A stretch of DNA of 32,000 bases from Trichlorobacter lovleyi SZ (GCF_000020385.1 NC_010814.1:1770001-1802000); one strand, 5' to 3'. Positions 1,477-32,000 are shown, numbered from the stretch's first letter. A program made the numbers and translations. The notes: generated from the sequence alone by a model not told the origin.

Positions 1477-1482
1477 ATCTGC

Positions 1483-4713: not shown

Positions 4714-4742
4714 CTTGCCTACATTTTGTGCTGTCTGACAAA

Positions 4743-4767
4743 GTGGGCTCGCAAAGCCCACTTTTTT
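4743..4767 (+). terminator. intrinsic-terminator-like hairpin in the rimP leader (possible attenuator)
   Basis: GTGGGCT (4743-4749) / AGCCCAC (4755-4761), 5-nt loop, T6 run 4762-4767. Lies 18 nt upstream of the rimP ATG, with no + strand gene upstream to terminate. Confidence 0.6.
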
Positions 4768-4784
4768 ATTGCCTGGAGTTTTTC

Positions 4785-5264: not shown

Positions 5265-5336
5265 CGTAATCAGCGTAACCAAAGAACTTTGCCGTATTTA
5301 ATTTTTAATCCGTGACCGCATAAGGAGATTCGTGCC

Positions 5337-6494
5337 GTGGATACAATCGTCAGTCTCAAACAGGCCATCGAGCAGATCGTGAAAGAGAAGGGGATCGACC
5401 GTCAGGTGGTGATCGAGGCGATGGAACAGGCAGTTCTGTCTGCTGCCAATAAAAAATATCGTAATACCCGCAATCTGGAAGCGCACTATAACAACGACAC
5501 TGGCGAAGTGGAGTTGTTTGAATATGTTGTGGTGGTGGAAGAGGTGCAGGACTCCTATACCGAGATCTCATTGGATGAGGCTCGTGAAATGGACCCGGAG
5601 TGTGAGGTTGGCGATGAGCTGGGTGAGAAAATAGACTCCGGTGATTTTGGCCGGATTGCTGCCCAGACAGCCAAGCAGGTGATTATCCAGAAAGTGCGCG
5701 AAGCGGAGCGTGAGACTGTCTTTAATGAGTACAAGGACCGTCAGTGGGAGATCGTGACCGGTCAGGTCCGCCGGTTTGAGCGTGGGGATCTGCTGATTGA
5801 CCTTGGCCGGGCAGAAGCTATACTGTCAGGCAAAGAGCAGATGCCCCGCGAAGTGTATCGCCCCGGAGACCGGATTCGGGCCATTATCACCGACATCGCC
5901 ATGACCACCAAGGGGCCGCAGATCATCCTGTCCCGCACCCATCCCCAGATGCTGGCCAAGCTGTTTGAGGCAGAAGTTCCGGAAATCGGCGAAGGGTTGG
6001 TTGAGATTGTCAACGTTGTCCGTGATCCGGGGAGCCGGGCCAAGATTGCTGTTGCTTCTCATGATCGTGATATTGATCCGGTTGGCGCCTGCGTTGGCAT
6101 GCGCGGCTCACGGGTTCAGAATGTGGTTTCCGAACTGCGTGGCGAGAAGATCGATATCATACCCTGGTCAGCCGATATTGCCCGCTTTGTCTGCAACGCA
6201 CTATCGCCGGCTCAGGTGGTCAAGGTCTTTATGGATGAGGAACAGCGTACGCTTGAGGTGATTGTACCTGATGACCAGCTGTCCCTGGCAATCGGCAAGC
6301 GTGGCCAGAACGTTAGTCTTGCTGCCCGCCTGACCGGCTGCCGGATCGATATCAAGGGTGAAGGCAAGGTGGAGGAAGGTGATCTTGAAGAGTTTGCTTC
6401 CTTCGATGGCACACACGTTGAAGAAGAACCGGAAGAAATGGCTGTGGATGAAGAGACAGATCAGCAACAACCGGAGCCGGAGATTGCTGCCTAG
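5337..6494 (+). CDS. nusA: transcription termination/antitermination factor NusA
   Basis: N-terminal domain, S1 and two KH regions recognisable (GDRIRA.., RTHPQMLAKLF, DPVGACVGMRGSRVQ, LAIGKRGQNV). GTG start with AAGGAG RBS at 5323-5328. Acidic C-terminal tail. Confidence 0.95.
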   Translation: MDTIVSLKQAIEQIVKEKGIDRQVVIEAMEQAVLSAANKKYRNTRNLEAHYNNDTGEVELFEYVVVVEEVQDSYTEISLDEAREMDPECEVGDELGEKIDSGDFGRIAAQTAKQVIIQKVREAERETVFNEYKDRQWEIVTGQVRRFERGDLLIDLGRAEAILSGKEQMPREVYRPGDRIRAIITDIAMTTKGPQIILSRTHPQMLAKLFEAEVPEIGEGLVEIVNVVRDPGSRAKIAVASHDRDIDPVGACVGMRGSRVQNVVSELRGEKIDIIPWSADIARFVCNALSPAQVVKVFMDEEQRTLEVIVPDDQLSLAIGKRGQNVSLAARLTGCRIDIKGEGKVEEGDLEEFASFDGTHVEEEPEEMAVDEETDQQQPEPEIAA

Positions 6495-6497
6495 CAT

Positions 6498-7109
6498 ATG
6501 AAGCAGCACGGTGGGACAGGGCCACAGCGAAGTTGTATCGCCTGTAGACGTGAAGGGGATAAAGCGAACTTTCTTCGCTTTGTGATCGCGCCGGACGGCA
6601 CGGTAACCCCGGACCTTGAAGGAAAGCTGCCCGGACGTGGAGCATATCTTTGTCAGTCCAGGCGTTGCGTGCTGGATGCTGCCTCCAAGCGGCAGTTTAA
6701 TCGTGCCTTCAAGGGGATGGCTGCAACTGTTGATGGTCCGGCATTGGTAACGCTTCTGCAGCAGATCATGGAACAACGGATCAGCGGCTATCTTGCCCTG
6801 GCAAACAAGGCTGGTGCAACGGTGTCCGGTGGTGAGGCAATTGAACGGTCCCTGAAGGGGATGAAACTGCCGCGTCTGCTGGTGCTGGCAACGGATATCT
6901 CTTCAGCCATTGCTGAAAAGCTGGAAGGGATGGCGGCACGGGCGGCTGTGCCGGTGGTGCAGGTGTTGTCCAAGGAGTTGTTGGGACAACTGGTAGGTAA
7001 AGAGTCGGATCGAAGCGCTGTAGCCGTGATGTCGGACGGCTTTGCATGGTCACTTGTTAAGGAAATTGAGCGATACAGGAACTACCTGGAGGAGGAGAGC
7101 GGTCGATGA
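6498..7109 (+). CDS. ylxR: YlxR (DUF448) RNA-binding domain fused to an L7Ae/YlxQ-like domain
   Basis: N-terminus [19 protein letters not shown]...GRGAYLC = YlxR signature. C-terminus [33 protein letters not shown] is L7Ae/YlxQ-like. Sits between nusA and infB. Confidence 0.75.
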
Positions 7110-9955: not shown

Positions 9956-10098
9956 AAACGATCTTTTTCCGCCCTGGCCCAGTCAAGCTTCAGCATGACT
10001 GGTGCGGCGTACTGCAATGTACGCCTCCGCACCATGCTTCGCTTGCCAGAACCAGAGCAAAAAAAAACTTCGTTTCGGTAGGTTAAAAGGTATTTGTT

Positions 10099-10470
10099 AT
10101 GAAGCACAAACGTTCGGACAAGGTCGCTGAGACCATCCATACAACCATATCCACGATCCTGTCCCGGGGGTTGAATGACCCCCGGATCGGGTTTGTCACC
10201 ATTACCGGGGTTGAGGTGACCGATGACCTGCACCTGGCGCGGATCTTTTTTACGGTGATTGGTGATGAGGCCGCTAAAAAGAGTAGTGAAGCAGGTCTGA
10301 ACAGTGCGGCACGCTTTATCCGCCATGAATTGGGGAAAGTTTTGAAGATGCGCTATACCCCTGACATCCTTTTTAAATATGACCATTCTCAGGAGTATGG
10401 CCAGCGGATTGATGACCTGCTGCGGGAGGTGGGAACCGGCAATGACGGAAACGATTCAGAAGATCGTTAA
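10099..10470 (+). CDS. rbfA: ribosome-binding factor A
   Basis: KRSDKVAETIHTTISTIL..DPRIGFVTITGVEVTDDLHLARIFF is typical RbfA. Downstream of infB. Confidence 0.92.
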   Translation: MKHKRSDKVAETIHTTISTILSRGLNDPRIGFVTITGVEVTDDLHLARIFFTVIGDEAAKKSSEAGLNSAARFIRHELGKVLKMRYTPDILFKYDHSQEYGQRIDDLLREVGTGNDGNDSEDR

Positions 10471-11407
10471 CGCTATCCGGCAGAGCCGGACCGTTTTGAT
10501 TACCAGCCATGAAGGCCCTGATGGTGATGCCATTGGCTCGTCATTGGGGCTTGCTGCATTTTTGAAGGCGATCGGCAAGCAGGTGGTAGTGCATCTGGCT
10601 GACCCGGTGCCTGAACTGTACCGCTTTCTGCCCGGTGCTGATCTGGTCTGCAGCGATATCCCTGATCAGGATTTTGATCTTGCCTTTGTGCTGGATGTAG
10701 GAGAGTTCCGCCGTGCAGGCAAACAATTTGGTGCCTTTACCCGGATTGGTCAAACCATCAACCTTGATCACCACCTGACCTGCGAACATTTTGGCAACCT
10801 TAACCTGATCGATGAACAGGCTGCGGCAACCGGCCTGCTGATCTGGCGGGTTGCCAAGGCCTACGGCTTCACCGCGGATTATGCTACCGCCCTCTGTCTC
10901 TATGTGGCGGTGCTGACTGATACCGGTTCGTTTCGCTACTCAAACTCGAATCAGGAAGCCTTTACTGCTGCAGGTGAACTGGTTCAGCAGGGCAGTTTGA
11001 ATGCCTGGCATGTGGCGGAAAAACTGTATGAAAGCCAGCCTCGCAAGCGTCTTGAGCTGCTGGCACAGGCGCTGCCGACCCTTGAGTTTGTGAAAGAGGG
11101 GCAGGTTGCCTCAATCACCGTGACACTGGATATGTATGCTGCAACAGGTGCGACGGCCGAGTTGACCGATGGATTTGTAAACTACCCGCGCTCGGTGGCC
11201 GGGGTTGAGGTGTCAGTGTTTTTTCGTCAGCTCGATGAACGCAAGTACAAGGTCGGCTTCCGTTCGAAGGGAACTGTCAATGTGGCTACACTCGCCCAGG
11301 CCTTTGGCGGCGGCGGTCATCACAACGCTGCCGGAGGCACGGTGGAGGGAAGCCTGGACGAGGTCAAGCGGATCGTCTATGGAGCGGTTGAAGCAGCACA
11401 GTGGTAG
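10442..11407 (+). CDS. nrnA: DHH/DHHA1 phosphoesterase (NrnA-type oligoribonuclease/pAp phosphatase)
   Basis: Motifs HEGPDGDAIGS, NLDHH, TDTGSFRYSN, GGGGHHNAAGG. ATG 10442 overlaps the rbfA end. Confidence 0.85.
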   Translation: MTETIQKIVNAIRQSRTVLITSHEGPDGDAIGSSLGLAAFLKAIGKQVVVHLADPVPELYRFLPGADLVCSDIPDQDFDLAFVLDVGEFRRAGKQFGAFTRIGQTINLDHHLTCEHFGNLNLIDEQAAATGLLIWRVAKAYGFTADYATALCLYVAVLTDTGSFRYSNSNQEAFTAAGELVQQGSLNAWHVAEKLYESQPRKRLELLAQALPTLEFVKEGQVASITVTLDMYAATGATAELTDGFVNYPRSVAGVEVSVFFRQLDERKYKVGFRSKGTVNVATLAQAFGGGGHHNAAGGTVEGSLDEVKRIVYGAVEAAQW

Positions 11408-12279
11408 ACGGCTTTCTGGTCATTGATAAACCTGCCGGTATCAGCTCCCATGATGTCGTTAACCGGGTGCGGCGTATCCTTGGTACCAGGAAGGTCGGTC
11501 ATACCGGCACCCTTGATCCCTTTGCAACCGGAGTATTGCCGATTGCTGTGGGTGAAGGCACCAAGGCGATCCAGTTTCTGGATGAAGGTGAAAAGGCCTA
11601 TGAGGCGGTCATCCGGCTTGGCCTGGTAACTGATACCCTTGATATCACCGGAACTGTGCTGCAGGAACATGATTCTGGCGGGCTAGGGCAGGAACAGCTT
11701 TTAAGCGCTATGGAAGCCCTGACGGGCGAAATCAGTCAGGTTCCGCCGATGTACTCTGCCATCAAGCAGGGTGGGCAGCCGTTGTACAAGCTGGCTCGCA
11801 AAGGGATTGAGGTTGAACGGCAATCCCGCCAGGTCATCATTCACAGCTTTGAACTGCTTGAGTTCTCATCACCCCTGGCAACCGTTCGGGCACACTGCTC
11901 ACGTGGTACCTATGTGCGGACATTGGCTGATGATCTGGGAAAACTGCTTGGATGCGGTGCCTGTCTGACTGCGTTGCGGCGTACCCTAAGCGGCCCGTTC
12001 CGGCTGGCTGATGCCATGACGCTGGAACAGCTTGCCAGCTATGCAGAAGAAGGTGTCGCACAACATCATGTTGTGCATGTGCCGACAGCACTTTCCCACC
12101 TGGCTCAGATTCAATTGACTGAATCTGAGCTGCAGAAGCTTAAAAACGGTATTCCGCCTCGGGACAGGCTGCTTGAGATGCCCCCCGGTATGTTCAGCCT
12201 GATGTATGGCCAACAGGTGATAGCAGTTGCAGAACAGACCCCTGAGAAGGCTGTCAGCCTGAAAAGGGTCTTCAACTGA
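11401..12279 (+). CDS. truB: tRNA pseudouridine(55) synthase
   Basis: GFLVIDKPAGISSHDVV, GHTGTLDPFATGVLPI (catalytic Asp), YSAIK. GTG start overlapping the nrnA stop. Confidence 0.93.
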   Translation: MVDGFLVIDKPAGISSHDVVNRVRRILGTRKVGHTGTLDPFATGVLPIAVGEGTKAIQFLDEGEKAYEAVIRLGLVTDTLDITGTVLQEHDSGGLGQEQLLSAMEALTGEISQVPPMYSAIKQGGQPLYKLARKGIEVERQSRQVIIHSFELLEFSSPLATVRAHCSRGTYVRTLADDLGKLLGCGACLTALRRTLSGPFRLADAMTLEQLASYAEEGVAQHHVVHVPTALSHLAQIQLTESELQKLKNGIPPRDRLLEMPPGMFSLMYGQQVIAVAEQTPEKAVSLKRVFN

Positions 12280-12386
12280 TGGAAATGCTTTACAGGTTCA
12301 GGTAAGGTGTGATAGAGGTATATCCCTTTTAGTGTTTAAAGTGTTTCGACACATACATCCCCATGCTGTACAGGAGGAGCCCACAG

Positions 12387-12653
12387 GTGCTGGCTACAGA
12401 AAAAAAGCAGGAAATCATTAACAACTTTAAGAAGCATGAAGGCGATACCGGATCCCCTGAGGTCCAGATTGCAATCCTGACCGCACGCATTGTGTATCTG
12501 ACCGATCACTTCAAGATCCACAAGAAGGATCATCACAGCCGTCGCGGTCTGTTGAAGCTGGTTGGCCAGCGTCGTCGCATGCTTGACTATCTCAAGTCCC
12601 GTGATCTTGATCGTTACAAGAAGGTGATCGAGCAGCTCGGTATCCGCAGGTAG
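12387..12653 (+). CDS. rpsO: 30S ribosomal protein S15
   Basis: (V)[49 protein letters not shown] 12387 is preceded by AGGAGG (12372-12377). 88 aa, the expected size. Confidence 0.93.
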
Positions 12654-12656
12654 GAA

Positions 12657-12706
12657 GCGGGCAGCTATCCCGGCACGGCCCAGGGATCTGCCCGCCTCTT
12701 TTATTG
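12657..12706 (+). terminator. long hairpin / terminator after rpsO
   Basis: GCGGGCAG..ATCCC / GGGAT..CTGCCCGC, followed by CTCTTTTATTGTTT. Confidence 0.7.
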
Positions 12707-12712
12707 TTTCGC

Positions 12713-12743
12713 AAAAGGGCTGTTAAGGCCCTTTTATTTTTTT
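12713..12743 (+). terminator. second hairpin with T-run in the rpsO-pnp spacer
   Basis: AAAAGGGC (12713-12720) / GCCCTTTT (12728-12735), 7-nt loop, then ATTTTTTT. Confidence 0.65.
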
Positions 12744-12834
12744 GTCAACCGTGTTGGGGGCGTGGATAGAAAAGCTCTGGTTTCAGGGAGTTTCCATCGA
12801 CGGCCCCAGCGCACATTTCATGTGAGGAGAAAAC

Positions 12835-14946
12835 ATGACATTCAACGAAAAGTGCGTAGAAGCTCAGGTAGGAAACATGAACGTAAAGATCTCCACCGGC
12901 AAGATGGCCAAGCAGGCCAGTGGTGCGGTGGTGATCAGCAGTGGCGATACCATGGTGCTGGTGACCGTGGTGGGCACCAAAGAGGCAAAGCCGGGTCAGG
13001 ATTTCTTTCCTTTGACCGTCAACTACACCGAGAAGACCTATGCCGGTGGCAAGATTCCCGGCAGTTTCTTCAAGCGCGAAGGGCGTCCCTCCGAGGACGA
13101 GACCTTGATCTGCCGTCTGATCGACCGTCCGATCCGTCCTCTGTTCCCGGAATCCTACCTGTGTGATACCCAGGTCATGGCAACCGTTATTTCAGCAGAA
13201 GAAGACCATGATCCTGCTATTCTCTCCATGATTGGCGCATCTGCAGCCCTGATGATTTCCGACATCCCGTTTGAAGGCCCGATTGCCGGTGTTAAAGTAG
13301 GCCGTGTTGATGGCAAGCTGATTGCCAACCCCAGTGCAGAGCAGCTGAAGCTGAGTGACCTGGAGATCGTGGTTGCTGCCGGTAAGGATGCCATCTTCAT
13401 GGTTGAAGGTGAGGCCGACTTTGTTTCTGAAGAAGATCTGCTTGAGGCGGTCTTCTTTGCCAAGGACGCAGTGCAGGGAATCCTGGCTGCACAGGAAGAG
13501 CTGGCCAGGCAGGTTGGTGTTGCCAAGCGTGAAGTAGCTCCTCTGGTTGTTGATGAAGCACTGAAGGCAAAGGTAAAGGCGCTGGCCTTTGATCGTATTG
13601 CCCAGGCATTCAAGATCAAGGCCAAGCAGGAGCGTTATGCTGCTGTAGCCCAGATCAAGGAAGAGGTAGTTGCCGCCCTGGCGGAAGAGTTCGAAGGTCG
13701 TGATAAAGAGATCAAAGGCTTTATCGGCGATATAGAATATGATCGTATGCGTCACGATGTGCTGGAAACCGGCATCCGTATTGATGGCCGTGATACCAAA
13801 ACCGTTCGTCCGATCGCCATTGAGGCCGGCCTGCTGCCCCGCGCACACGGCTCCACCCTGTTTACCCGTGGTGAGACCCAGGTGCTGGCTGCTGCCACGC
13901 TGGGTACTTCACAGGATGAGCAGCGGATGGATTCGCTCTACGGCGAATACCGCAAGAAGTTCATGCTGCACTATAACTTTCCTCCCTTCTCGGTTGGTGA
14001 AACCAGCTTCCGTCTGGCTCCGGGCCGTCGTGAGATCGGTCACGGCATGTTGGCAGAGCGGGCTATCTCCGCTATCCTGCCGAACCATGATGACTTTCCG
14101 TACACCATCCGGATCGTGGCAGAGACTCTGGAGAGCAACGGTTCCTCCTCCATGGCCACTGTCTGCGGCGGCTGCCTCTCCCTGATGGATGCCGGTGTAC
14201 CGGTCAAGGCACCGGTAGCCGGTATTGCCATGGGTCTGATCAAGGAAGGCGAGAAGGTTGCCATCCTGACCGACATCCTGGGGGATGAAGATCATCTGGG
14301 CGATATGGACTTCAAGGTTGCCGGTTCCGCAGACGGTGTAACTGCCCTGCAGATGGATATCAAGATCGGTGGCGTCAGCAAGGAGATCATGCAGCAGGCC
14401 CTGAAGCAGGCCAAGGAAGGCCGTCTGCATATCCTGGGCAAGATGGCCCAGTGTCTGGCTGCCCCCCGTGAAGAGATGTCTGCCTTTGCCCCGCGTATCA
14501 CTACCATCTGGATCAAGCCTGACCGGATCCGCGATGTTATCGGTACCGGCGGCAAGACCATCCGCAGCATTACCGAGGCAACCGGCGTCATGATTGATAT
14601 TGATTCCGACAACAGCGGCAAGATCAATATCGCCAGCTCCGACAAGGCTGCCTGTGATGCGGCGATCCAGATGATCCGCGGCCTGACTGATGAGGTTGAA
14701 GAAGGCAAGCTCTATATGGGTACCGTCAAGAAGATCATGGAGTTTGGTGCCTTTGTTGAAGTGCTGCCCGGCACTGATGGTCTGGTGCATATCTCTGAGC
14801 TGGACGAGACCCGCGTCAAGAATGTGACCGATATCCTGAATGAAGGCGACAAGGTGCTGGTCAAGTGTATCGGCGTGGATAAACAGGGTAAGATCAAGCT
14901 CTCGCGCAAGGCCGCTCTTGGCCAGTCGCTGGAAGAAAAAGACTGA
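12835..14946 (+). CDS. pnp: polyribonucleotide nucleotidyltransferase (PNPase)
   Basis: Two RNase PH domains (GSSSMA motif), a KH domain ([11 protein letters not shown]) and an S1 domain ([19 protein letters not shown]). 703 aa; GAGGAG RBS. Confidence 0.97.
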
Positions 14947-14968
14947 TCCTGTTACAGGTAAGTTACAA

Positions 14969-15002
14969 AGGGGACGGGGCTGCGGTCCCGCCCCCTTTTT
15001 TG
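14969..15002 (+). terminator. rho-independent terminator after pnp
   Basis: GGGG(A)CGGG / CCCGCCCC stem with 8-nt loop, followed by T6. Confidence 0.8.
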
Positions 15003-15054
15003 TTGACGGTACACACTCAAATCCTGCATAAGTCCCGATTGAGGAGGGTTGTCT

Positions 15055-16962
15055 ATGGAACGCTGGTCAATCAATGAGTCTGCCAAGGTATACAACCTGG
15101 ATAACTGGGGGGCAGACCTGTTTTCAATCAACAAAAAGGGCAATATCTGCGTTCACCCTTCCTCAAACTCAAAGAACGCCATTGATTTGCGCGCCCTGGT
15201 TGATGACCTGATCAAGCGTAAGATCAAGCCGCCGATCCTGCTCCGTTTCATGGATGTGCTGCAGGGGCGGATCGCCTCCATCAACCGGGTCTTCCGTAAT
15301 GCCATTGCGGAAAACGACTATCCTGCCAAGTATCAGACCTTCTACCCGATCAAGGTAAATCAGCAGCGCCAGGTGGTTGAGGCGATTGCCAGCTACGGCA
15401 AACGCTACAATATCGGCCTTGAGGTCGGTTCAAAGCCGGAGCTGGTGGCAGGGATCGCTATCTCCACCGGCAATGGCCTACCGATCATCTGCAACGGCTA
15501 CAAGGATGCCGAATATATCGAGACCGTGCTGTTTGCCACCCGGGTCGGCTACAACATCACCATCGTGGTTGAGAAGCTGTTTGAGCTGGAAAAGATCATT
15601 GAACTTGCCAAGAAGACCGGTATCAGACCCAGCCTGGGTATCCGGGTCAAGCTCTCCTCCAAAGGGACCGGTAAATGGGCCACCAGCGGCGGCGAAGATG
15701 CCAAGTTCGGTCTGCGGATGTCAGAGATCATGGCAGCCATCAAGATGCTGCAGGAGGCGGATCTGCTGGACTGTGTCAACCTGCTGCATTCCCATATCGG
15801 CAGCCAGGTCACGAAGATCGACAAGATCAAGACCGCCCTGATTGAGGCAGCCCGGATTTACTCGGAGATGCGCAAGCTGGGGGTCAATATCCAGTATCTG
15901 GATATTGGCGGTGGTCTGGGGGTTGATTATGACGGTTCCAAGTCCAGCTATTTCTCCAGTGTCAACTACACCGTGGAAGAGTACGCCAATGACGTGATCT
16001 ACCAGATCAAGAACATCTGCGATGAAGCCGGGGTGGACTGCCCCAACATCATCTCAGAATCCGGCCGAGCCACGGTTGCCCATTATTCCGTGCTGGTCAC
16101 CAATGTCCTGAACACCAACACCCAGAACCTGATGCCGGATTATGAGCAGATTCTTGAAGAGATGGAAAAGCCGGCCCCCACGGTTAAAAAACTGCTGGAT
16201 ATTTACAAGAGCATTGACCGCTATTCACTGCGGGAGGATTACCACGACACCCTGCAGCTGATCAATGAGGCGGTCAGCCTGTTCAATCTGGGGTATCTGA
16301 CCCTGCAGGATCGTGCCATTGCCGAGTGGCTCTATTCCAAGATCATTAAGAAGATCAACAGTATTGTGGAGAAGATCAAACCGATCCCGGAGGAGTTGCA
16401 GAACTTCCAGCTTGCCCTGCGCCAGACCTATTTTGCCAACTTTTCGCTGTTCCAGTCCATTCCTGACTCCTGGGCCATTGATCAGCTCTTCCCGATCATG
16501 CCGTTGCAGCGCCTGGGCCAGCGTCCTGATGTGATGGCCTCAATCGCGGATATTACCTGTGATTCAGACGGTGAGATCACCAGCTTTGTAGGGGAAAATG
16601 GACGCAGCAAGTTCCTGCCGATGCACAAGCTGAAAAAAGACGAAGATTACTACATCGGCTTTTTCCTGATCGGTGCCTATCAAGAAATTCTGGGTGATCT
16701 GCACAACCTGTTTGGTGACACCAATGCCGTGCATATCACCTTCAACAAAAAGACCGGCTACATGATTGATACGGTCATCAACGGTGATGCCACTTGGGAA
16801 ACCCTGAAGTATGTCCAGTACAAGGGGCCGGAGATCCTTAAGCATGTGCGGGATAACCTTGAAAAACAAGTTGCCATCAAGAAGGTCTCCATTGAGGAGA
16901 GCAGCCACTTTATTGAACTGTTGGATAGAACCCTGTTGGGCTATACATACCTGGGTGAATAG
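15055..16962 (+). CDS. speA: biosynthetic arginine decarboxylase
   Basis: MERWSINESAKVYNLDNWG.. N-terminus, FYPIKVNQQ (PLP-Lys), HSHIGSQ, DIGGGLGVDYDG. ATG 15055 is 6 nt after GAGGAGGG; the track start is TTG 15049. Confidence 0.93.
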   Translation: MERWSINESAKVYNLDNWGADLFSINKKGNICVHPSSNSKNAIDLRALVDDLIKRKIKPPILLRFMDVLQGRIASINRVFRNAIAENDYPAKYQTFYPIKVNQQRQVVEAIASYGKRYNIGLEVGSKPELVAGIAISTGNGLPIICNGYKDAEYIETVLFATRVGYNITIVVEKLFELEKIIELAKKTGIRPSLGIRVKLSSKGTGKWATSGGEDAKFGLRMSEIMAAIKMLQEADLLDCVNLLHSHIGSQVTKIDKIKTALIEAARIYSEMRKLGVNIQYLDIGGGLGVDYDGSKSSYFSSVNYTVEEYANDVIYQIKNICDEAGVDCPNIISESGRATVAHYSVLVTNVLNTNTQNLMPDYEQILEEMEKPAPTVKKLLDIYKSIDRYSLREDYHDTLQLINEAVSLFNLGYLTLQDRAIAEWLYSKIIKKINSIVEKIKPIPEELQNFQLALRQTYFANFSLFQSIPDSWAIDQLFPIMPLQRLGQRPDVMASIADITCDSDGEITSFVGENGRSKFLPMHKLKKDEDYYIGFFLIGAYQEILGDLHNLFGDTNAVHITFNKKTGYMIDTVINGDATWETLKYVQYKGPEILKHVRDNLEKQVAIKKVSIEESSHFIELLDRTLLGYTYLGE

Positions 16963-17057
16963 CTGGTTTGTAAATGTTGTGTGACAAGCTTGCACCTGTT
17001 GTTGCTGCTGTCTAAACTGTCTATCAATTTCCAATTTAACTCAGGAGGAAGCAGTCC

Positions 17058-18254
<1,197 letters not shown>

Positions 18255-18391
18255 AAACGCCATCTCTGCGCCCTGGCCGATTCAGCCCCTGCAGAGGCTT
18301 CTTTGACGTGCTTTTCTGTACGCCTTCATCGCCTCTTAGGTGCTGTCTCAGCCATCATTGCAGGTCTGACGTTTCTTGGACGGATTAATTT

Positions 18392-25043: not shown

Positions 25044-26423
25044 ATGAGTAAATCCCCGCGACATACCCCCGTTACGACACCAGCCACCACTGATGCAATC
25101 CTTGAAAGCATCTCCGATGGTGTCTTTACTGTTGATCCTGAGTGGAGGATTACCTCCTTTAACCGGGCAGCGGAAGAGATTACCGGCATCTCACGCAGGG
25201 ATGCCATTGGGCGGCTCTGTTCGGAAGTGTTCCGTTCCAACATGTGCGAGACCGATTGCGCCCTGCGCAAAACCCTGAAAAACGGCAGGCCGATCATCGG
25301 GCGTTCCGGCTATATCATTGATGAAGAGGGAAACCGCATCCCGATCAGTCTTTCGACAGCAGTATTGAAGGACAGCAATGGCAAAGTGGTGGGTGGGGCC
25401 GAGACCTTTCGGGATCTGAGTGAGGTGGAGACCCTGCGCCATGAGCTTGAGGGACGTTTTCATGTGGGGGAGATTGTCAGCCGCAGTCCCCTGATGCAGC
25501 GTCTGTTTGAGGTGATTCCCTCCATTGCGGTCAGTCCCAGTACGGTTCTGCTGAACGGCGAGACCGGAACCGGCAAAGAGCTGATGGCGCGGACCATCCA
25601 TAGTCTGAGCAAGCACAGTAGCGGGCCGTTTGTGGCGCTTAACTGCGGTGCGTTGCCGGATACCCTGCTGGAGTCAGAGCTGTTCGGCTACAAGGCCGGA
25701 GCCTTTACCGGAGCCACCAAGGACAAGCCGGGCCGCTTTGCCCTGGCCAAAGGCGGCACCCTGTTTCTGGATGAGATCGGTGAAGTGAGTCCGGCATTGC
25801 AGGTCCGCCTGCTGCGGGTCCTGCAGGAACACTGCTATGAGCCGCTGGGCGGTACGACCCCGGTAACAACCGATGCGCGGATCATTGTTGCCACCAATCG
25901 TGACCTGGCAGAGTTGACCCGTAACGGGACCTTTCGTGAGGATCTCTACTACCGGGTAAATGTAGTGCGGATCGAGCTGCCACCGCTTCGACGGCGCAAA
26001 GAGGATCTGCCGCTGCTGGTGGAGCAGTTTATTGCCAAGTTCAACCGTCTGCACCATGCCACGGTGCGGGGCATGGCGCCTGAGGCGCTTTCGTTGCTGA
26101 TGGCCCATGACTGGCCCGGCAACGTGCGAGAACTGGAAAACGTGATTGAGCGGGCCTTTGTACTCTGCCCGGATGGCACGATTGAAATCAGGCATCTGCC
26201 GGATGAACTGACCCTCCATGGCAGCCGCTCTGTTGGTCATGCTTCTCTGCAGGATGCCCGTTCCCAGCTGGAGGCCCAGACCATTCAGGCTGCTCTGGAA
26301 CGCAACAACTATAACCGCCTGGCAACGGCCAAGGCGTTAGGCATGCATAAGACCTCGCTGTTCCGCAAGATCAGACAACTCGGCATTCCCCTGCCGGAAA
26401 AAGATGGGCGTTCAAAACAGTAG
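25044..26423 (+). CDS. sigma54-dependent transcriptional activator with an N-terminal PAS domain (Cys-rich) and a C-terminal Fis-type HTH
   Basis: PAS: ILESISDGVFTVDPEWRITSFNRAAEEITG, with CX9CX3C (RLCSEVFRSNMCETDC). AAA+: GETGTGKE, GAFTGA, LFLDEIGE. HTH: RLATAKALGMHKTSLFRKIRQLGI. Confidence 0.92.
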   Translation: MSKSPRHTPVTTPATTDAILESISDGVFTVDPEWRITSFNRAAEEITGISRRDAIGRLCSEVFRSNMCETDCALRKTLKNGRPIIGRSGYIIDEEGNRIPISLSTAVLKDSNGKVVGGAETFRDLSEVETLRHELEGRFHVGEIVSRSPLMQRLFEVIPSIAVSPSTVLLNGETGTGKELMARTIHSLSKHSSGPFVALNCGALPDTLLESELFGYKAGAFTGATKDKPGRFALAKGGTLFLDEIGEVSPALQVRLLRVLQEHCYEPLGGTTPVTTDARIIVATNRDLAELTRNGTFREDLYYRVNVVRIELPPLRRRKEDLPLLVEQFIAKFNRLHHATVRGMAPEALSLLMAHDWPGNVRELENVIERAFVLCPDGTIEIRHLPDELTLHGSRSVGHASLQDARSQLEAQTIQAALERNNYNRLATAKALGMHKTSLFRKIRQLGIPLPEKDGRSKQ

Positions 26424-26547
26424 AGTCCTTTATCTGCTACCCTGTAGGTCAACAACAGTTGCATTAATACTACCATTCCCCCTCCTTAAAGTTATTCTCC
26501 CTTAAAACAATAATGCAATATCAGTATGTTAAAGGCTTGTTGTCCCT

Positions 26548-26564
26548 TGGCATGGTCACTGCAT
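26548..26564 (+). promoter_or_regulatory. sigma54 (-24/-12) promoter
   Basis: TGGCAT-GGTCA-CTGCAT: GG and GC elements with canonical spacing. 47 nt upstream of the first operon ATG, directly downstream of the EBP gene. Confidence 0.8.
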
Positions 26565-26610
26565 AGTGTAAACAGCATGTAGCGCACTACCAGTCTGGAG
26601 CTCCAAGGTA

Positions 26611-27021
26611 ATGAGAACAGCCTTTTCCCTCTGGAACGAACGGATAGCACCGGTGTTTGATGTTGCCAGACATCTCTGGATTGTTGATGCAGAGGATGGC
26701 CGGATCATTGGTCAGACAGGTCGTAGATTTTCCAGTGATGATCCGAAGGAGCGAGCACTGCGGCTGACAACCATGCAGGTGGAGCAGTTAGTCTGTGGCG
26801 CCATCACCCGCAGTTCTTATGAGGCATTGGCTGAGCGGGGCATTCAGGTGGTCTCGTTTATTGCCGGAGATCTTGATCAGGTAGTGCATGCCTGTCTGGC
26901 GGATCAGCTGAAGGATGGAAAGCTGAAAATGCCGGGCTGTCACCGGGGCAAGCGGCACGGCGCACGACGCTATCCCGGCAGAGACGCGTGCGTCATGAGG
27001 TCAGAGCCTACAAGGGAGTAA
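26611..27021 (+). CDS. NifX/NifB-C-terminal-like (dinitrogenase FeMo-cofactor biosynthesis fold) protein with a basic Cys-containing tail
   Basis: WNERIAPVFDVARHLWIVD..., LVCGAITRSSYEALAERGIQVVSFIAGDLDQVV, C-terminal KMPGCHRGKRHGARR. Confidence 0.7.
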   Translation: MRTAFSLWNERIAPVFDVARHLWIVDAEDGRIIGQTGRRFSSDDPKERALRLTTMQVEQLVCGAITRSSYEALAERGIQVVSFIAGDLDQVVHACLADQLKDGKLKMPGCHRGKRHGARRYPGRDACVMRSEPTRE

Positions 27022-27026
27022 TGCAT

Positions 27027-27257
27027 ATGCCAAACAGAAATGGACAAGGACCAATGGGAGCCGGTTCAGGAACCGGACGTGGACGTGGAGTATGTAACAG
27101 AAATAAACAGCCGGGGATGCTGAATCAGGAAGCCTCTCAGGATCAGGTGGCGGCTGAACCGCAACGCCCTGATCCAGGCTGCAGGGGACCGCAAGGGTGC
27201 GGTACTGGCAAGGGACATCGTAAAAACAGCTGTGGCAGCGGGCGAGGCCAACGCTAG
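27027..27257 (+). CDS. DUF5320-like small Gly/Arg/Cys-rich protein
   Basis: MPNRNGQGPMGAGSGTGRGRGVC matches the DUF5320 N-terminal signature (MPxxDGTGPxGxGPxTGRGxGxC). ATG 27027 is 8 nt after AGGGAG. The C-terminus holds 4 more Cys in a Gly-rich context. Confidence 0.65.
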   Translation: MPNRNGQGPMGAGSGTGRGRGVCNRNKQPGMLNQEASQDQVAAEPQRPDPGCRGPQGCGTGKGHRKNSCGSGRGQR

Positions 27258-27310
27258 AGGATTCCCGGTCATGCAGGCCTATCACCTCTGAAGGCTGAGC
27301 AGTGCGGGAG

Positions 27311-27350
27311 CGCCGGTGTCTTACCGGAGGGAGAGGCACCGGCGTATTTT
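27311..27350 (+). terminator. intra-operon hairpin with a short T-tract (partial terminator, attenuator or processing site)
   Basis: CGCCGGTGTCT (27311-21) / AGAGGCACCGGCG (27332-44) followed by TATTTT. Confidence 0.5.
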
Positions 27351-27366
27351 AAAGTCAGGAGAATCT

Positions 27367-27729
27367 ATGAATACCATTGCATTTACCACCGCCGGACAGG
27401 AGCTTGCTGCTGCACTTGATCCGCGTTTCGGGCGGGCAGCAAATTTCCTGATCTACGATACAGATCAAAAAACCACACGGATTATTGAAAACCAACAGGG
27501 CCGCAGCGCTTCCCAGGGGGCAGGCATACAGGCAGCAGAAACCATTGTGCGTGCCGGTGTTGATGCCCTGGTAACCGGCCATTGCGGCCCCAAGGCCTTT
27601 AAGGTGCTGGATGCTGCCGGGGTAAAAGTTTTTAACTGCACTGCTGCAACTGTTGATGAGGCCCTGCAACAGTTACAGGCAGGCAAGCTGACAGCTGCAG
27701 AAAACTCTGATGTCGAAGGGCACTGGTAA
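27367..27729 (+). CDS. NifX/NifB-like (MTH1175-type) FeMo-cofactor-fold protein
   Basis: MNTIAFTTAGQELAAALDPRFGRAANFLIYD...GAGIQAAETIVRAGVDALVTGHCGPKAFKVLDAAGVKVF. AGGAGA RBS. The track ORF starts upstream at 27316. Confidence 0.8.
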   Translation: MNTIAFTTAGQELAAALDPRFGRAANFLIYDTDQKTTRIIENQQGRSASQGAGIQAAETIVRAGVDALVTGHCGPKAFKVLDAAGVKVFNCTAATVDEALQQLQAGKLTAAENSDVEGHW

Positions 27730-28610
27730 TGGCGGCGTCATCCCGGAACAGGTCATACAGAATAGCGGTTGCTTCCGGCAAAGGTGGTACCGGCAAGACC
27801 ACGGTTGCCCTGAATCTGGCTGCCATGTTTGGAGAACCGCTACAGCTGGCGGATTGTGATGTTGAAGAGCCCAACGTCAATCTGTTTCTGCGTTGCGATC
27901 AGGTGGAGGCAACAGAAGTTACCATGCTGGTGCCGGAGGTTGATCAGCAGCGCTGTAACGGTTGTGGCGCCTGTGGTGAACTGTGCCAGTTTCGCGGGAT
28001 TGTTGCCATCGGAACCAGGGCGCTGGTGTTTCCGGAGCTGTGTCATGGCTGCGGCGGCTGTGCCCTGGTCTGCCCAACCGGAGCCATAACTGAGCGCCCC
28101 CACCGGATCGGCACGATCTCCGCAGGGCAATCCGGTGCCATCAGGTTGATTGAAGGCAGGCTGGAGGTGGGGGTCTCGCTGGTTCCGCCGGTGATCAGAG
28201 CGGTGCGGGATGGTCTGATGGACGGGATTCCTGCCATTCTTGATGCCCCTCCAGGTACTTCCTGTCCGGTGGTGGCCACCCTGCGTGAGTCTGATTATCT
28301 GCTGCTGGTTACTGATCCGACCCCCTTTGGCCTGCATGACCTCAAGCTGGCTGTTGCCCTGGCCCGTGAGCTGAATCTGGCCTGCGGTGTGGTGGTAAAC
28401 CGGGCAGGAGAGGATCTGGTCGGCCTGTATGGTTACTGCCGGTCAGAAAACCTGCCGGTACTGCTTTCACTGCCGGATGACCGCCAGATAGCGGAAATCA
28501 CCTCCCGGGGGGATCTGGTTGCCAGGGTACTGCCGGAATACGGTCTGATGTTTGCCGAGCTGGCCGAAAAGCTGAAACAGGAGTTGGGAACAACAGGAGG
28601 TACGCCATGA
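27729..28610 (+). CDS. MinD/ParA-superfamily P-loop ATPase with inserted 2x[4Fe-4S] ferredoxin domain (COG1149 type)
   Basis: Deviant Walker A SGKGGTGKTT. CNGCGACGELC and CHGCGGCALVCP ferredoxin motifs. TAATG overlap with the upstream gene. Confidence 0.88.
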   Translation: MAASSRNRSYRIAVASGKGGTGKTTVALNLAAMFGEPLQLADCDVEEPNVNLFLRCDQVEATEVTMLVPEVDQQRCNGCGACGELCQFRGIVAIGTRALVFPELCHGCGGCALVCPTGAITERPHRIGTISAGQSGAIRLIEGRLEVGVSLVPPVIRAVRDGLMDGIPAILDAPPGTSCPVVATLRESDYLLLVTDPTPFGLHDLKLAVALARELNLACGVVVNRAGEDLVGLYGYCRSENLPVLLSLPDDRQIAEITSRGDLVARVLPEYGLMFAELAEKLKQELGTTGGTP

Positions 28611-29485
28611 GCAAGGAGCATATCCGCGAACTGGTGGTACTGTCCGGCAAAGGCGGCACCGGCAAAACCAGTGTTACCGCCTCGTTTGCCCTGCTGGCAA
28701 AAAAAGCGGTGCTGGCTGACTGTGATGTTGATGCTGCTGATCTGCATCTGCTGCTGACGCCGATGGTTGAACAGCGCCATGCCTTCATGAGTGGTCATGA
28801 AGCGGTGATCCGTCAGCAGGATTGCACCGGCTGCGGCATCTGCATGGATAGCTGCCGTTTTGATGCGATCCGTCGTGAAGACATCAGCTACCGGATTGAT
28901 CCGGTGGCCTGTGAAGGCTGCGGTGTCTGCTATCGGCTCTGTCCGGTCAAGGCGATTGATTTTCCTGATCGGGTCTGCGGTGAATGGATGGTCTCCGGTA
29001 CCCGTTGTGGCCCGATGGTGCATGCCCAACTGGGAGTGGCAGCAGAGAACTCGGGCAAGCTGGTTACCACCGTGCGGGAACAGGCCTGGGCTGTGGCGGT
29101 GGATAAGCGGATTCCGCTGATCATCTCAGACGGTCCTCCCGGTATCGGCTGTCCGGTAATTGCATCATTAAGTGGCGTTTCACTGGCCGTGGTGATTACC
29201 GAGCCAACCGTATCCGGCCTGCATGATCTGCAGCGTCTGTTGGCCCTGGCCCGTCATTTTTCTGTGCCAACCGCAGTCTGTGTCAACAAGTGGGATATCA
29301 ACCCGCAGCAGACCGAGCGGATCGAGGCAGCAGCAGAAGCTGCCGGTGCAGCGATACTGGGGCGTATCCGTTATGACCGTTCCGTAACCCAGGCCCAGCT
29401 GCAGCAAAAAGCGGTGGTGGAGCTTGAAGCAGCAGCCGGTGATGATATTCGCGTTGTCTGGAAACAGGTAACAGAGTTGTTATAA
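28607..29485 (+). CDS. second MinD/ParA-superfamily ATPase with inserted 2x[4Fe-4S] ferredoxin domain
   Basis: SGKGGTGKTS; CTGCGICMDSC and CEGCGVCYRLCP. ATGA overlap with the upstream paralog. Confidence 0.88.
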   Translation: MSKEHIRELVVLSGKGGTGKTSVTASFALLAKKAVLADCDVDAADLHLLLTPMVEQRHAFMSGHEAVIRQQDCTGCGICMDSCRFDAIRREDISYRIDPVACEGCGVCYRLCPVKAIDFPDRVCGEWMVSGTRCGPMVHAQLGVAAENSGKLVTTVREQAWAVAVDKRIPLIISDGPPGIGCPVIASLSGVSLAVVITEPTVSGLHDLQRLLALARHFSVPTAVCVNKWDINPQQTERIEAAAEAAGAAILGRIRYDRSVTQAQLQQKAVVELEAAAGDDIRVVWKQVTELL

Positions 29486-29513
29486 ACCCTTTTTGTTTTA
29501 AGGAGGCAACAGC

Positions 29514-30440
29514 ATGGACGCAGCACAGCAGCAAACCCCGCAGCAGGAACAATCCTGCCCACCTTCAGCATGTGAATCATGTTCATCCAGCAGTTGCTCG
29601 GCAACCAGCAAAAAGCTGACTGAAACCGAGCAGGAGTTTGAAGACCGCCGTCGTCTGGCCTCGCGCCTGTGCAGGATCAAGCACAAGATTGTGGTGCTGT
29701 CCGGCAAAGGCGGGGTTGGCAAAAGCACGGTGGCGGTCAATCTTGCCATGGGGCTGCATCTGGCAGGCAAGAAGGTCGGTTTGCTGGATGTGGATATCCA
29801 TGGTCCCAGCGTACCCACCATGCTTGGCCTTGAGAAGAGCCAGGTTTTGGAAGGCAATGGCGAGCTGGTACCGGTTGATCTGAACGGTATGAAGGTCATC
29901 TCGCTGGGGTTCTTTCTGAAAGAACAGGATGAAGCGGTGATCTGGCGCGGTGCCATGAAGACCGGCGTGATTACCCAGTTTATCCGTGACGTGGCCTGGG
30001 GTGACTTGGACTACCTGATTGTTGATTCACCTCCGGGCACCGGTGATGAACCACTTTCGGTCTGCCAGACCCTGGAGGATGCAGATGGCGCGGTGATCGT
30101 CACCACCCCCCAGAAGGTTGCAGCGGTAGATGTCCGTAAATCCATCTCCTTCTGTCGTCAGATCAATCTGCCGGTGCTAGGGGTGATCGAGAATATGAAC
30201 GGCTTTGTCTGCCCCAAATGCGGGGAGCTGACTGCGGTCTTCCAGTCAGGTGGCGGCAAGTTGATGGCCGATGATATGGGGGTGCCGTTTCTGGGGTCAG
30301 TACCGATTGATCCCCGGATTTCCGAAGCAGGGGATAGTGGAGTAGCATTTTTGCAACGGTATGCCGACTCCACCACTGCAGGGCTGTTCCAGTCACTGAT
30401 AATTCCGGTTATGGAAGAGCTGGAGGCGGCACAATTATGA
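29514..30440 (+). CDS. Mrp/NBP35/ApbC-family Fe-S cluster carrier ATPase with a Cys-rich N-terminal extension
   Basis: SGKGGVGKSTVAVNLA, DSPPGTGDE, CPKCG (bridging-cluster CxxC). N-terminus CPPSACESCSSSSCS. AAGGAGG RBS. Confidence 0.88.
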   Translation: MDAAQQQTPQQEQSCPPSACESCSSSSCSATSKKLTETEQEFEDRRRLASRLCRIKHKIVVLSGKGGVGKSTVAVNLAMGLHLAGKKVGLLDVDIHGPSVPTMLGLEKSQVLEGNGELVPVDLNGMKVISLGFFLKEQDEAVIWRGAMKTGVITQFIRDVAWGDLDYLIVDSPPGTGDEPLSVCQTLEDADGAVIVTTPQKVAAVDVRKSISFCRQINLPVLGVIENMNGFVCPKCGELTAVFQSGGGKLMADDMGVPFLGSVPIDPRISEAGDSGVAFLQRYADSTTAGLFQSLIIPVMEELEAAQL

Positions 30441-30670
30441 CCATAACGCTCACAGCGGATACATCAGTACTGGAACTTGTGGAACATCACCCGGAGACCG
30501 AAGCGGTCTTTGAGCGTTACACCAAACGGCTTGGTATCTGTATCTGCTGCGAGTGTCTGTTCTGCAGCCTGAAAGATGTTGCAGCACGTTATGAACTTGA
30601 TCTTGATGAGCTGATGGCCCGTTTGAACAGCGCTATTGAATCTGATCTGAAGGAGTCACCGTGCGCCTGA
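30437..30670 (+). CDS. DUF1858-domain small protein with an unusual CICCECLFC cluster
   Basis: 77 aa. LELVEHHPETEAVFERY...L.DVAARYELDLDELMARLN is DUF1858/ScdA-N-like. ATGA overlap with the Mrp gene. Confidence 0.65.
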   Translation: MTITLTADTSVLELVEHHPETEAVFERYTKRLGICICCECLFCSLKDVAARYELDLDELMARLNSAIESDLKESPCA

Positions 30671-32000
30671 ACGACCCATCCCTTTTACGCCAATCCTGTT
30701 ACCTGAACGGCCAGTGGCTTGCTGCTGACAGCGGCAAGACCATTGATGTCACCAACCCTGCCACCGGTGAAGTTCTGGGCACTATTCCCAAAATGGGTAC
30801 TGCTGAAACCCGTCGTGCCATAGAGGCAGCCAATGCAGCCTGGCCAGCCTGGCGGGTAAAGACCGCCAAAGAACGGGCAACCATCCTGCGGCGCTGGTTT
30901 GAACTGATGCTGGAAAACCAGGAAGACCTGGCCATTATCATGACTGCCGAGCAGGGCAAGCCGTTGGCTGAATCCCGTGGTGAGATATCCTACGCAGCCT
31001 CATTCATTGAATGGTTTGCCGAAGAAGGCAAACGGCTCTATGGAGACACCATCCCTGCCCATGGCCGTGACAAGCGGATTGTGGTCATCAAAGAACCGAT
31101 CGGTGTCTGTGCTGCCATCACCCCATGGAACTTCCCCTCTGCCATGATTACCCGTAAAGCAGGCCCAGCCCTGGCTGCCGGTTGCACCATGGTGGTCAAA
31201 CCTGCCACCGCCACCCCTTTCTCGGCACTGGCCCTGGCTGAACTGGGTGAACGGGCTGGCATCCCTGCCGGGGTATTCAGCGTCATCACCGGTTCATCCA
31301 GTGAAATCGGCACTGAAATGACCTCCAACCCGATTGTGCGCAAACTGACCTTTACCGGCTCCACTGAGATCGGCAAGCAGTTGACCGCCCAATGCGCTGC
31401 CACCATGAAGAAGGTCTCCATGGAACTGGGTGGTAATGCACCGTTTATTGTCTTTGATGATGCGGATCTGGATGCGGCCGTGGAAGGAGCCATCGCCTCC
31501 AAGTACCGCAACACCGGACAGACCTGTGTCTGCACCAACCGCCTGCTGGTACAGGCTGGTGTCTATGACCTGTTTGCAGAGAAACTGGCAACCGCAGTTG
31601 CCAAGATGCGGGTGGGTGATGGCCTCAAGGATGATGTCCAGCAGGGACCACTGATTGATGAGGCCTCAGTACAAAAAGTGGAAGAGCATATCCATGATGC
31701 TGTATCCAAAGGGGCCCGCATAGCATTAGGCGGCAAACGCCATGAACTGGGCGGCACCTTCTTCCAGCCCACCATCCTCTGTGATGTAACCCCCCAGATG
31801 CTGGTGGCACGGGAAGAGACCTTTGGACCGGTGGCGCCGATCTTCAAATTCACCACTGATGCAGAAGCAATAAAAATGGCCAACGACACGGAATTCGGTC
31901 TGGCCTCCTACTTCTATACCCGTGACATCGGCAGGGTCTGGCGGGTGGCAGAGGCATTGGAATACGGCATGGTGGGGATCAACACCGGCCTGGTCTCCAC
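30661..32000 (+). CDS. gabD: NAD(P)+-dependent succinate-semialdehyde dehydrogenase (3' end outside the window)
   Basis: Not in the ORF track because it has no stop in the window. Frame 1 is open from GTG 30661 (AAGGAG RBS at 30650-55). The translation VRLNDPSLLRQSCYLNGQWLAADSGKTIDVTNPATGEVLG...EQGKPLAESRGEISYAASFIEWFAEEGKR...ITPWNFPSAMITRKAGPALAAGCTMV...ELGGNAPFIVFDDADLD...GQTCVC is near-colinear with E. coli GabD. Confidence 0.9.
   Translation, partial: MRLNDPSLLRQSCYLNGQWLAADSGKTIDVTNPATGEVLGTIPKMGTAETRRAIEAANAAWPAWRVKTAKERATILRRWFELMLENQEDLAIIMTAEQGKPLAESRGEISYAASFIEWFAEEGKRLYGDTIPAHGRDKRIVVIKEPIGVCAAITPWNFPSAMITRKAGPALAAGCTMVVKPATATPFSALALAELGERAGIPAGVFSVITGSSSEIGTEMTSNPIVRKLTFTGSTEIGKQLTAQCAATMKKVSMELGGNAPFIVFDDADLDAAVEGAIASKYRNTGQTCVCTNRLLVQAGVYDLFAEKLATAVAKMRVGDGLKDDVQQGPLIDEASVQKVEEHIHDAVSKGARIALGGKRHELGGTFFQPTILCDVTPQMLVAREETFGPVAPIFKFTTDAEAIKMANDTEFGLASYFYTRDIGRVWRVAEALEYGMVGINTGLVS

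Follow-up and report, generated by a model that had tools for sequence, protein, structure and literature searches.

What is encoded by a run of sigma-54-gated genes for Fe-S and metallocluster proteins that lies outside any nif context? The question is raised by positions 25044-30670 in a 32,000-nt stretch of Trichlorobacter lovleyi SZ DNA (GCF_000020385.1, NC_010814.1:1770001-1802000). That whole stretch is here called the window, and coordinates are counted from its first letter. A sequence-only reading had described the region, an activator gene followed by seven genes, as an uncharacterized metallocluster-handling system with no known biochemical role. Its functional outline, in which sigma-54 and an enhancer-binding protein gate a set of Fe-S and metallocluster proteins, is kept; its claim of novelty is not. 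On sequence comparison, the locus is very probably an ortholog, of Geobacteraceae (Trichlorobacter-like) type, of a named cluster: the orp (ORange Protein) system of Desulfovibrio vulgaris Hildenborough (DvH), on which published work covers ORP, MrpORP, OrpR, and IHF. The correct annotation for the gene set should be orp, not unknown.

Two matches pointed to the Desulfovibrio ORP literature: that of one product to the orange protein structure 2wfb, and that of the Mrp product to MrpORP. The DvH cluster spans DVU2103-DVU2109, in which the operons orp5-orp4-orp3 and orp7-orp8-orp9 flank orpR (DVU2106). Orp3 and Orp4, paralogs of each other, carry two [4Fe-4S] motifs apiece; Orp8 is the orange protein, which holds an [S2MoS2CuS2MoS2] cluster; and Orp9 is MrpORP, an Fe-S carrier that transfers clusters to Orp3 and Orp4 in vitro. 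Five of the proteins (Orp3, Orp4, Orp5, Orp8, and Orp9) form a complex (PMC6345978). OrpR is a redox sensor with a [4Fe-4S] cluster on PAS residues C52, C61, and C65 and a conserved Asp or Glu at 54. Sigma-54 transcription of the orp operons, its whole regulon, depends on it absolutely, and the published statement restricts OrpR to the Deltaproteobacteria (PMC8359166). IHF acts as co-activator, at functional sites -43 and -79 that lie between the OrpR sites and the DvH orp promoters and that expression requires (PMC3897727). The sequence-only reading had named sulfate reducers among anaerobes with similar neighborhoods, and the set does occur in sulfate reducers. It had also held that documented roles for homologs of the whole set would overturn it; such roles are now largely on record for four of the eight gene products.

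The window and the DvH orp genes have the following in common: an orange protein; a paralogous pair of MinD-type ATPases that carry two [4Fe-4S] motifs each; an Mrp/NBP35 protein with a deviant Walker A motif, a CXXC motif, and an N-terminal Cys cluster; a gene inside the cluster for a sigma-54 activator of the PAS-[Cys3] type; and a -24/-12 promoter, near which the window has a candidate IHF-type site. The comparisons show these homologies and the conservation of gene order, promoter sequence, and Cys ligands (Table 1).

Table 1. Features of the T. lovleyi orp locus (window coordinates)
Feature	Coordinates	Strand	Basis
orpR-like sigma-54 enhancer-binding protein, 459 aa	25044..26423	+	Pfam PAS_9/Sigma54_activat/AAA_lid_14/HTH_8
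Candidate OrpR upstream activating sequence (UAS), two degenerate palindromes	26422-26443, 26455-26476	+	AGAGTnGC-N6-GCnACTCT; centers 33 bp apart
IHF-like site TATCAGTATGTTA	26519..26531	+	exact WATCARNNNNTTR; center ~48 nt upstream of predicted start
Predicted sigma-54 promoter TGGCATGGTCACTGCA	26548..26563	+	-24 GG / -12 GC; predicted start near 26574
First NifX-like protein (X1), 136 aa	26611..27021	+	Pfam PF02579 Nitro_FeMo-Co, 32.6 bits
DUF5320-type Gly/Arg-rich protein, 76 aa	27027..27257 (ORF alternative start 26988)	+	Pfam PF17253, 29.8 bits
Terminator- or attenuator-like stem-loop, then U-tract UAUUUUAAA	27310..27345	+	dG (free energy) -28 kcal/mol, z -4.07
Orange protein (ORP/Orp8) homolog, 120 aa	27367..27729 (ORF alternative start 27316)	+	Nitro_FeMo-Co, 88.9 bits
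MinD-type ATPase A, inserted 2x[4Fe-4S] ferredoxin (Orp3/Orp4-type)	27729..28610	+	CbiA/ParA + Fer4
MinD-ferredoxin ATPase B	28607..29485	+	CbiA/ParA + Fer4; 34% identical to A
Mrp/NBP35 Fe-S carrier, P-loop part of MrpORP (Orp9)	29514..30440	+	ParA/NUBPL, 337.6 bits
Cys-rich DUF1858/ScdA_N-like protein, 77 aa	30437..30670	+	DUF1858, 22.4 bits
gabD-like NADP succinate-semialdehyde dehydrogenase, partial	30661..32000	+	TIGR01780, 695 bits (cutoff 646); NF008415, 812 bits

Eight open reading frames (ORFs) lie where the sequence-only reading had placed them, and Pfam and NCBIfam profiles agree with its domain call for each. Its motifs were all seen in the translations: GAFTGA; MPGC with a basic tail; GPMGAGSGTGRGRGVC; CPKCG; and CICCECLFC. 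The N-terminal Cys motif of Mrp reads CPPSACESCSSSSC, and each ATPase has two CX2CX2CX3C motifs. The overlapping junctions (TAATG at 27729, ATGA at 28607, and ATGA at 30437) agree with the ORF coordinates, and the -24/-12 promoter is present 3' of the activator gene.

The ORP homolog finds its best PDB match in 2wfb, the ORP of D. gigas (Megalodesulfovibrio), with an E value of 4.8e-21 over residues 1-111. Both proteins have 120 residues, and both contain the blocks DPRFGRA and GPKAF; Cys73 of the window protein is Val in D. gigas ORP. Cys is found at this position in 53 of 71 cluster-linked homologs.

ATPases A and B agree with Orp3 and Orp4, as far as these are described in print: paralogs with two ferredoxin motifs each (PMC6345978). 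In ATPase A, the eight ferredoxin Cys residues, C43, and C179 are unchanged in all 86 homologs; in ATPase B, each of the eight is present in 81-82 of 82 homologs, as are C39 in 76 and C182 in all 82. The extra conserved residues occupy two places in both proteins: a D-C-D sequence after the Walker A strand, and a Cys seven residues past the Walker B Asp (DAPPGTSC). They could ligate a cluster that bridges a dimer. The second of them recalls Cys132 of NifH.

Do the ATPases, then, position the septum? One rival explanation gives the set a MinD-like role in control of cell division, in which the clusters serve as redox inputs only and no assembly or delivery machine exists. In the PDB profile search, the ATPases are closest to archaeal MinD (1g3q, E 2e-14), which aligns on either side of the ferredoxin insert, and the literature contains both morphological defects upon OrpR inactivation and a polar location of MrpORP. 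The archaeal proteins (1g3q and 1ion) have the ATPase core and the deviant Walker A motif in common with the window proteins, but lack the insert of about 70 residues, with its two [4Fe-4S] motifs, after switch I, and the invariant C43 and C179. Moreover, the minD equivalog TIGR01968 matches the two ATPases at 23 and 40 bits, against a cutoff of 212.9; no minC- or minE-like genes are present in the window or in the flanks of its relatives; and cluster binding is predicted for five of the seven products of the operon. The DvH authors themselves put the link with division forward as a hypothesis (PMC8359166). We consider such a role unlikely. It concerns function rather than identity, and is compatible with the orp assignment.

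A second rival makes the genes accessories in the biosynthesis of a nitrogenase-type cofactor (FeMo-co or related): their NifX/NafY-like carriers and a NifH-like ATPase would serve to mature a nitrogenase, or an enzyme like it, whose genes lie elsewhere. Three products do have the Nitro_FeMo-Co fold or weak nifB or nifX matches, and precomputed Fer4_NifH matches are attached to some ATPase homologs. However, the nifX model TIGR02663 scores 18 bits against a cutoff of 112, and the nifB model TIGR01290 21 bits against 344; by structure, the nearest relative is not NifX but the Mo-Cu orange protein. A NifH-like identity for the ATPases likewise found no support at sequence level: their PDB profile search returned MinD, Mrp, ParA-type, and ferredoxin-domain proteins and no NifH. 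Nor does the window, or the flanking 10 kb in close relatives (Trichlorobacter- and Geobacter-labelled metagenome-assembled genomes, or MAGs, and metagenome contigs), contain nitrogenase, nifEN, or nifB genes. Of the relatives with a genus name, the nearest are a Trichlorobacter sp. MAG (78%) and a Geobacter sp. MAG. This explanation is very improbable.

The orp assignment extends to the activator. Its PAS domain contains C59-X8-C68-X3-C72 together with an acidic residue at +2 (E61); an AAA+ domain with GAFTGA and a Fis-type helix-turn-helix follow. The Cys motif that the sequence-only reading had noted is thus real, but its spacing had been miscounted as CX9CX3C. Correctly counted, the spacing and the acidic residue are identical to the published OrpR ligand set, C52/C61/C65 with D/E54 (PMC8359166). 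The Cys triad and the Asp or Glu at +2 are unchanged in 29 of 29 distinct activator homologs from loci that carry the same cluster. The AAA+ motif itself differs slightly, reading GAFTDA in DvH.

Predicted regulatory elements lie immediately downstream of the activator gene. The promoter TGGCATGGTCACTGCA is the sole exact TGGCAY-N5-YTGCW in the 32-kb window, where 0.35 are expected by chance. In an alignment with three relatives (four by another count) whose activators are 83-85% identical, CTTGGCAyGnTCnnTGC is unchanged and the surrounding intergenic DNA has diverged. Besides the window and L002 (relatives, that is, contigs and MAG loci, carry L numbers; L002 is a copy identical to the window), 19 of 27 relative loci, drawn from diverse MAGs, have a match to the promoter expression between their activator and X1 genes. 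A GGGCAC..TTGCA string 5' of orpR was considered as a promoter and rejected for its wrong spacing. The exact IHF consensus occurs twice in the window, and one copy lies between the promoter and the candidate UAS; its position is comparable with that of the functional -43 site in DvH (PMC3897727). Among relatives, it is conserved in part only. The candidate UAS, found by eye as a footprint in the alignment with relatives, begins at the orpR stop codon. At up to three mismatches, its palindrome consensus has four matches in the window versus 1.29 expected, and L089 has a perfect palindrome, AGAGTAGCTATATAGCTACTCT, in the same place.

How widely does this arrangement occur? A profile of the first ATPase, run against GTDB representative genomes, found at least 80 loci, none of those listed above 59% identity, whose neighboring genes were then identified by tblastn with the window proteins. 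Among the 80 loci listed, the ORP gene adjoins the ATPase pair in about three quarters, and many of the others are short contigs; the activator and X1 upstream, and Mrp downstream, are each present in one third to one half. The recurrent order is activator, NifX-like, DUF5320, ORP, ATPase, ATPase, Mrp, as a gene-neighborhood check of the kind that the sequence-only reading had proposed now documents in MAGs of many anaerobe phyla. Their record titles include Syntrophia/Smithella, Acidobacteriota, Planctomycetota, Verrucomicrobiota, NC10, Spirochaetes, and Hydrogenedentota, among others. Separately, the closest metagenomic relatives of D. gigas ORP occur in another type of cluster: ORP, ATPase, ATPase, Nitro_FeMo-Co, and Zn_ribbon_8 (L098, 5942-9917; L100, 7001-9905). 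A DUF134 gene also lies upstream in L098 and L099, and these D. gigas-ORP-like clusters contain neither an OrpR-type activator nor an Mrp gene.

The seven genes had been described as translationally coupled. Three overlaps are in keeping with this; the 110-nt gap between the DUF5320 and ORP genes (27258-27366) and the 28-nt gap before Mrp are not. A strong hairpin followed by a U-tract occupies the larger gap. L087, L089, and L091 each have a hairpin of equal strength at this position (z -4.1 to -4.7), that of L089 with an unrelated sequence. A search of the gap for riboswitches such as that for molybdenum cofactor (Moco) gave no Rfam match at E values up to 1. The hairpin may be a partial terminator or attenuator that gives the two halves of the operon different expression levels. 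That the genes adjoin by accident, or make up several transcription units that are unrelated and share no function, is scarcely credible: this hairpin does divide the set, and gabD is a lineage-specific insertion, but no other terminator-like site was found within the operon, three junctions overlap, the DvH homologs form a five-protein complex (PMC6345978), and the gene order recurs in MAGs of many phyla, a synteny that excludes chance juxtaposition.

Two small proteins accompany the orp core at its promoter-proximal end. X1 has a weak Nitro_FeMo-Co fold and ends in the conserved MPGC and basic tail. Its C62 is present in 44 of 45 homologs, and C110, within MPGC, in all 45. The gene that follows encodes the DUF5320-type protein, for which position 27021 offers another in-frame ATG, one that would share a TAATG with the stop codon of X1; the 76-residue form is the one called in the identical contig L002. 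Of 48 loci, 38 have small Gly/Arg-rich ORFs in the interval from X1 to the first ATPase gene. As we read them, these fall into two groups, canonical DUF5320 proteins with a coiled-coil tail and a form that ends CxCPxCG...CPxCG. The Gly/Arg-rich protein of L009 (7644-8280) matches DUF5320 at 108.6 bits. The other form has no Pfam match and appears in some loci to be fused to X1 after MPGC; in-frame ORFs that continue from the X1 gene in four loci (L010, L019, L023, and L030) suggest such a Gly/Arg-rich, CxCPxCG-type tail. X1 and the DUF5320 protein may correspond to Orp5 and Orp7.

The Mrp protein has its top NCBIfam match in NF041136, the MrpORP model, at 379.5 bits over model positions 2-253 of 365 (ApbC, 231 bits). 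The sequence contains GKGGVGKS, CPKC, and an N-terminal Cys cluster, and CPxC is found in 43 of 44 homologs. The P-loop, CPKC, and N-terminal Cys cluster are common to the window protein and MrpORP (DVU2109 / Dde_3202), but the Di-Nase domain that follows in DvH MrpORP is absent from the window protein. In structural terms, Cfd1 (6g2g) is closest, along with 2ph1 and 3kb1 (E 4e-73 to 9e-60). MrpORP has been placed nearer to Cfd1/Nbp35 than to ApbC (PMC6345978). Eukaryotic Cfd1/Nbp35 and the archaeal Mrp scaffolds are encoded outside any cluster of orp type and have N-terminal Cys motifs unlike that of the window Mrp.

Where, then, is the Di-Nase half? A third Nitro_FeMo-Co gene (112-127 residues) lies 3' of the cluster in four relatives: L094 (2285-2865), L093 (11691-12280), L087 (14411-14991), and L089 (12899-13282). 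It is followed by genes for a sigma-54 activator of the response-regulator type and for a histidine kinase. An 81-residue ORF with no family match precedes it, except in L089. In L093 and L094, which are 92-94% identical in DNA to the window, the order is gabD, the 81-residue ORF, and a Nitro_FeMo-Co gene of 112-115 residues. The L094 product (112 residues), the only copy scored, matches model positions 265-365 of MrpORP, the Di-Nase part, at 124 bits. A separate gene that matches the Di-Nase half implies that MrpORP has been split into two genes in the L093/L094 clade. X1 was also tried as the detached Di-Nase domain; it reaches 21 bits to that part of the model, and the candidate was dropped in favor of the downstream gene. 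In L001, which is 99% identical to window positions 27897-32000, a membrane sensor gene follows gabD, so the window strain itself probably has no adjacent Di-Nase gene. In L093 (JGI Ga0645783_00952, a 148-kb contig), the activator, Mrp, gabD, and response-regulator activator genes are each called in two pieces, which suggests frameshift errors of assembly rather than real pseudogenes.

The DUF1858 gene sits at the point where the P-loop and Di-Nase parts are split in Geobacter/Trichlorobacter-like relatives. Its 77-residue product scores below the Pfam cutoff of 32.2 bits for DUF1858, yet 14 of 15 close homologs match that family too. C35-x-C37-C38 is unchanged, and the 19 homologs found all belong to a narrow Geobacter/Trichlorobacter-like group. 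In every readable neighborhood, the gene is directly 3' of Mrp, usually overlapping its stop codon; L091 has no such gene. Weak matches and a conserved Cys pair recall the N-terminal domains of RIC/ScdA/YtfE and those associated with hybrid-cluster proteins (PF04405, PF08984, and TIGR03980). Unlike those proteins, however, this one stands alone, has C-x-CC, and has no hemerythrin-type di-iron domain; all of its scores are below the cutoffs. It was therefore rejected as a repair protein of the RIC/ScdA/YtfE type (ScdA_N, 19.1 bits versus 32.5, and no second domain), and the JGI name 'YtfE (RIC family)' on a 99% homolog goes beyond the strength of the match.

The unit had been taken to end at 30670. 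It does not: a gabD-like gene starts at a GTG at 30661, overlaps the DUF1858 stop codon by 10 nt, and continues past the window. No terminator was found between the two genes. This overlap implies that gabD is probably co-transcribed with the genes before it, read through from the orp promoter. A gabD gene holds the same position in L001, L003, L088, L093, and L094, and is absent from L089, L091, and L095. Its presence only in the closest relatives points to a recent, lineage-specific insertion into the orp transcription unit.

Several points weigh against the orp assignment as a whole. DvH was compared by its published description, and in protein sequence only through the MrpORP model. The Mrp score falls below the MrpORP equivalog cutoff of 450, with the C-terminal 112 model positions unmatched, a shortfall that is due to the absence of the Di-Nase domain. 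X1, DUF5320, and DUF1858 are at most putative counterparts of Orp5 or Orp7, and the window has DUF1858 and gabD genes in addition to those of DvH. All of the window genes are on the plus strand, 3' of the activator, whereas in DvH two divergent operons flank orpR; the unidirectional order is also that of most loci in other phyla. Regulatory DNA contributes further points. The candidate activator sites differ from those of DvH, whose published OrpR site, GGGCGYRTTTTGCGCCC, is absent from the window. They are also degenerate, with three mismatches in site 1 and four in site 2 (counted by eye); since these copies are weak, we take the UAS as inferred. Finally, the hairpin at 27310-27345 could stop transcription ahead of the ORP gene, and no second sigma-54 promoter precedes that gene on the plus strand between 26563 and 27367, even at two mismatches.

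If the locus is an orp system, how might it work? Its regulation, complex formation, and metal content would be carried over from DvH, with sequence as a guide. At low redox potential, the activator would retain a [4Fe-4S] cluster on PAS residues C59, C68, and C72, which would release the AAA+ domain. Bound to the palindromic sites just 3' of its own stop codon, and aided by a bend that IHF would introduce, it would open the sigma-54 promoter. The first part of the transcript would yield the two-Cys NifX-like protein and the Gly/Arg-rich DUF5320 protein; beyond the terminator-like hairpin would come the orange protein, the two MinD-ferredoxin ATPases, Mrp/NBP35, the DUF1858 protein, and, in this lineage, succinate-semialdehyde dehydrogenase. 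The orange protein would hold a non-covalent Mo/Cu-sulfide cluster, as in Desulfovibrio. The products would form a metalloprotein complex, within which Mrp would load [4Fe-4S] clusters onto the two ATPases, as it does in the DvH/DdG20 assays. (In DvH, the Orp proteins reportedly co-purify as a complex; Fievet 2011.) A rising redox potential would then damage the sensor cluster and switch the operon off.

A wider reading is possible but doubtful: the ORP system would exceed the five-protein Desulfovibrio complex in both size and distribution, and X1, DUF5320, and DUF1858 would be genuine subunits, or else chaperones, of a cluster-handling machine driven by ATP. Its extended conserved core may then comprise OrpR, the two-Cys NifX-like protein, the DUF5320-type protein, ORP, the two ATPases, and Mrp.

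The rest of the window provides the setting of the locus. Positions 1-19546 are ordinary chromosome: rimP-nusA-ylxR-infB, a DHH phosphoesterase gene, truB, pnp, and an arginine decarboxylase gene. Saccharopine-dehydrogenase-like and Orn/DAP/Arg-decarboxylase-fold genes in the same part may serve polyamine synthesis. Next comes a tRNA-Arg(TCT) gene (19613-19689). Two att-like copies of its 3' end follow, at 24045-24061 (matching in 15 of 17 bases) and 24839-24856 (16 of 18). An island of about 5.2 kb (19613-24856) is flanked by these repeats; encoded in it are an IS110-family transposase, a second transposase of the DUF772/DDE type, an RHH-ParE toxin-antitoxin pair, and, on the minus strand, a remnant of a Peptidase_S78 prohead protease. 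A 131-residue ORF at 19862-20257 has no Pfam match. The orpR gene starts 190 nt past the right-hand repeat, and relatives carry other genes 5' of orpR.

The ORP system is among the few anaerobe-specific gene sets that are conserved, metal-rich, and tightly regulated and yet have no known cellular function. This copy brings no new principle. It is a new member of the orp kind, set apart by lineage-specific additions (DUF1858 and gabD), by a Di-Nase domain that is missing or split, and by the hairpin conserved inside the operon. With its MrpORP domains split, or Di-Nase lost, it is a natural variant that could help to settle the role of that domain. The small proteins that accompany the core can now be defined: the two-Cys X1, the DUF5320-type protein, and, in Geobacter/Trichlorobacter-like relatives, the DUF1858 protein. 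Moreover, conservation of the sigma-54 promoter and of the redox-sensor signature of OrpR extends well outside the Deltaproteobacteria. If read-through into gabD is true, this lineage would have placed an enzyme of carbon metabolism under the redox-sensing OrpR switch.

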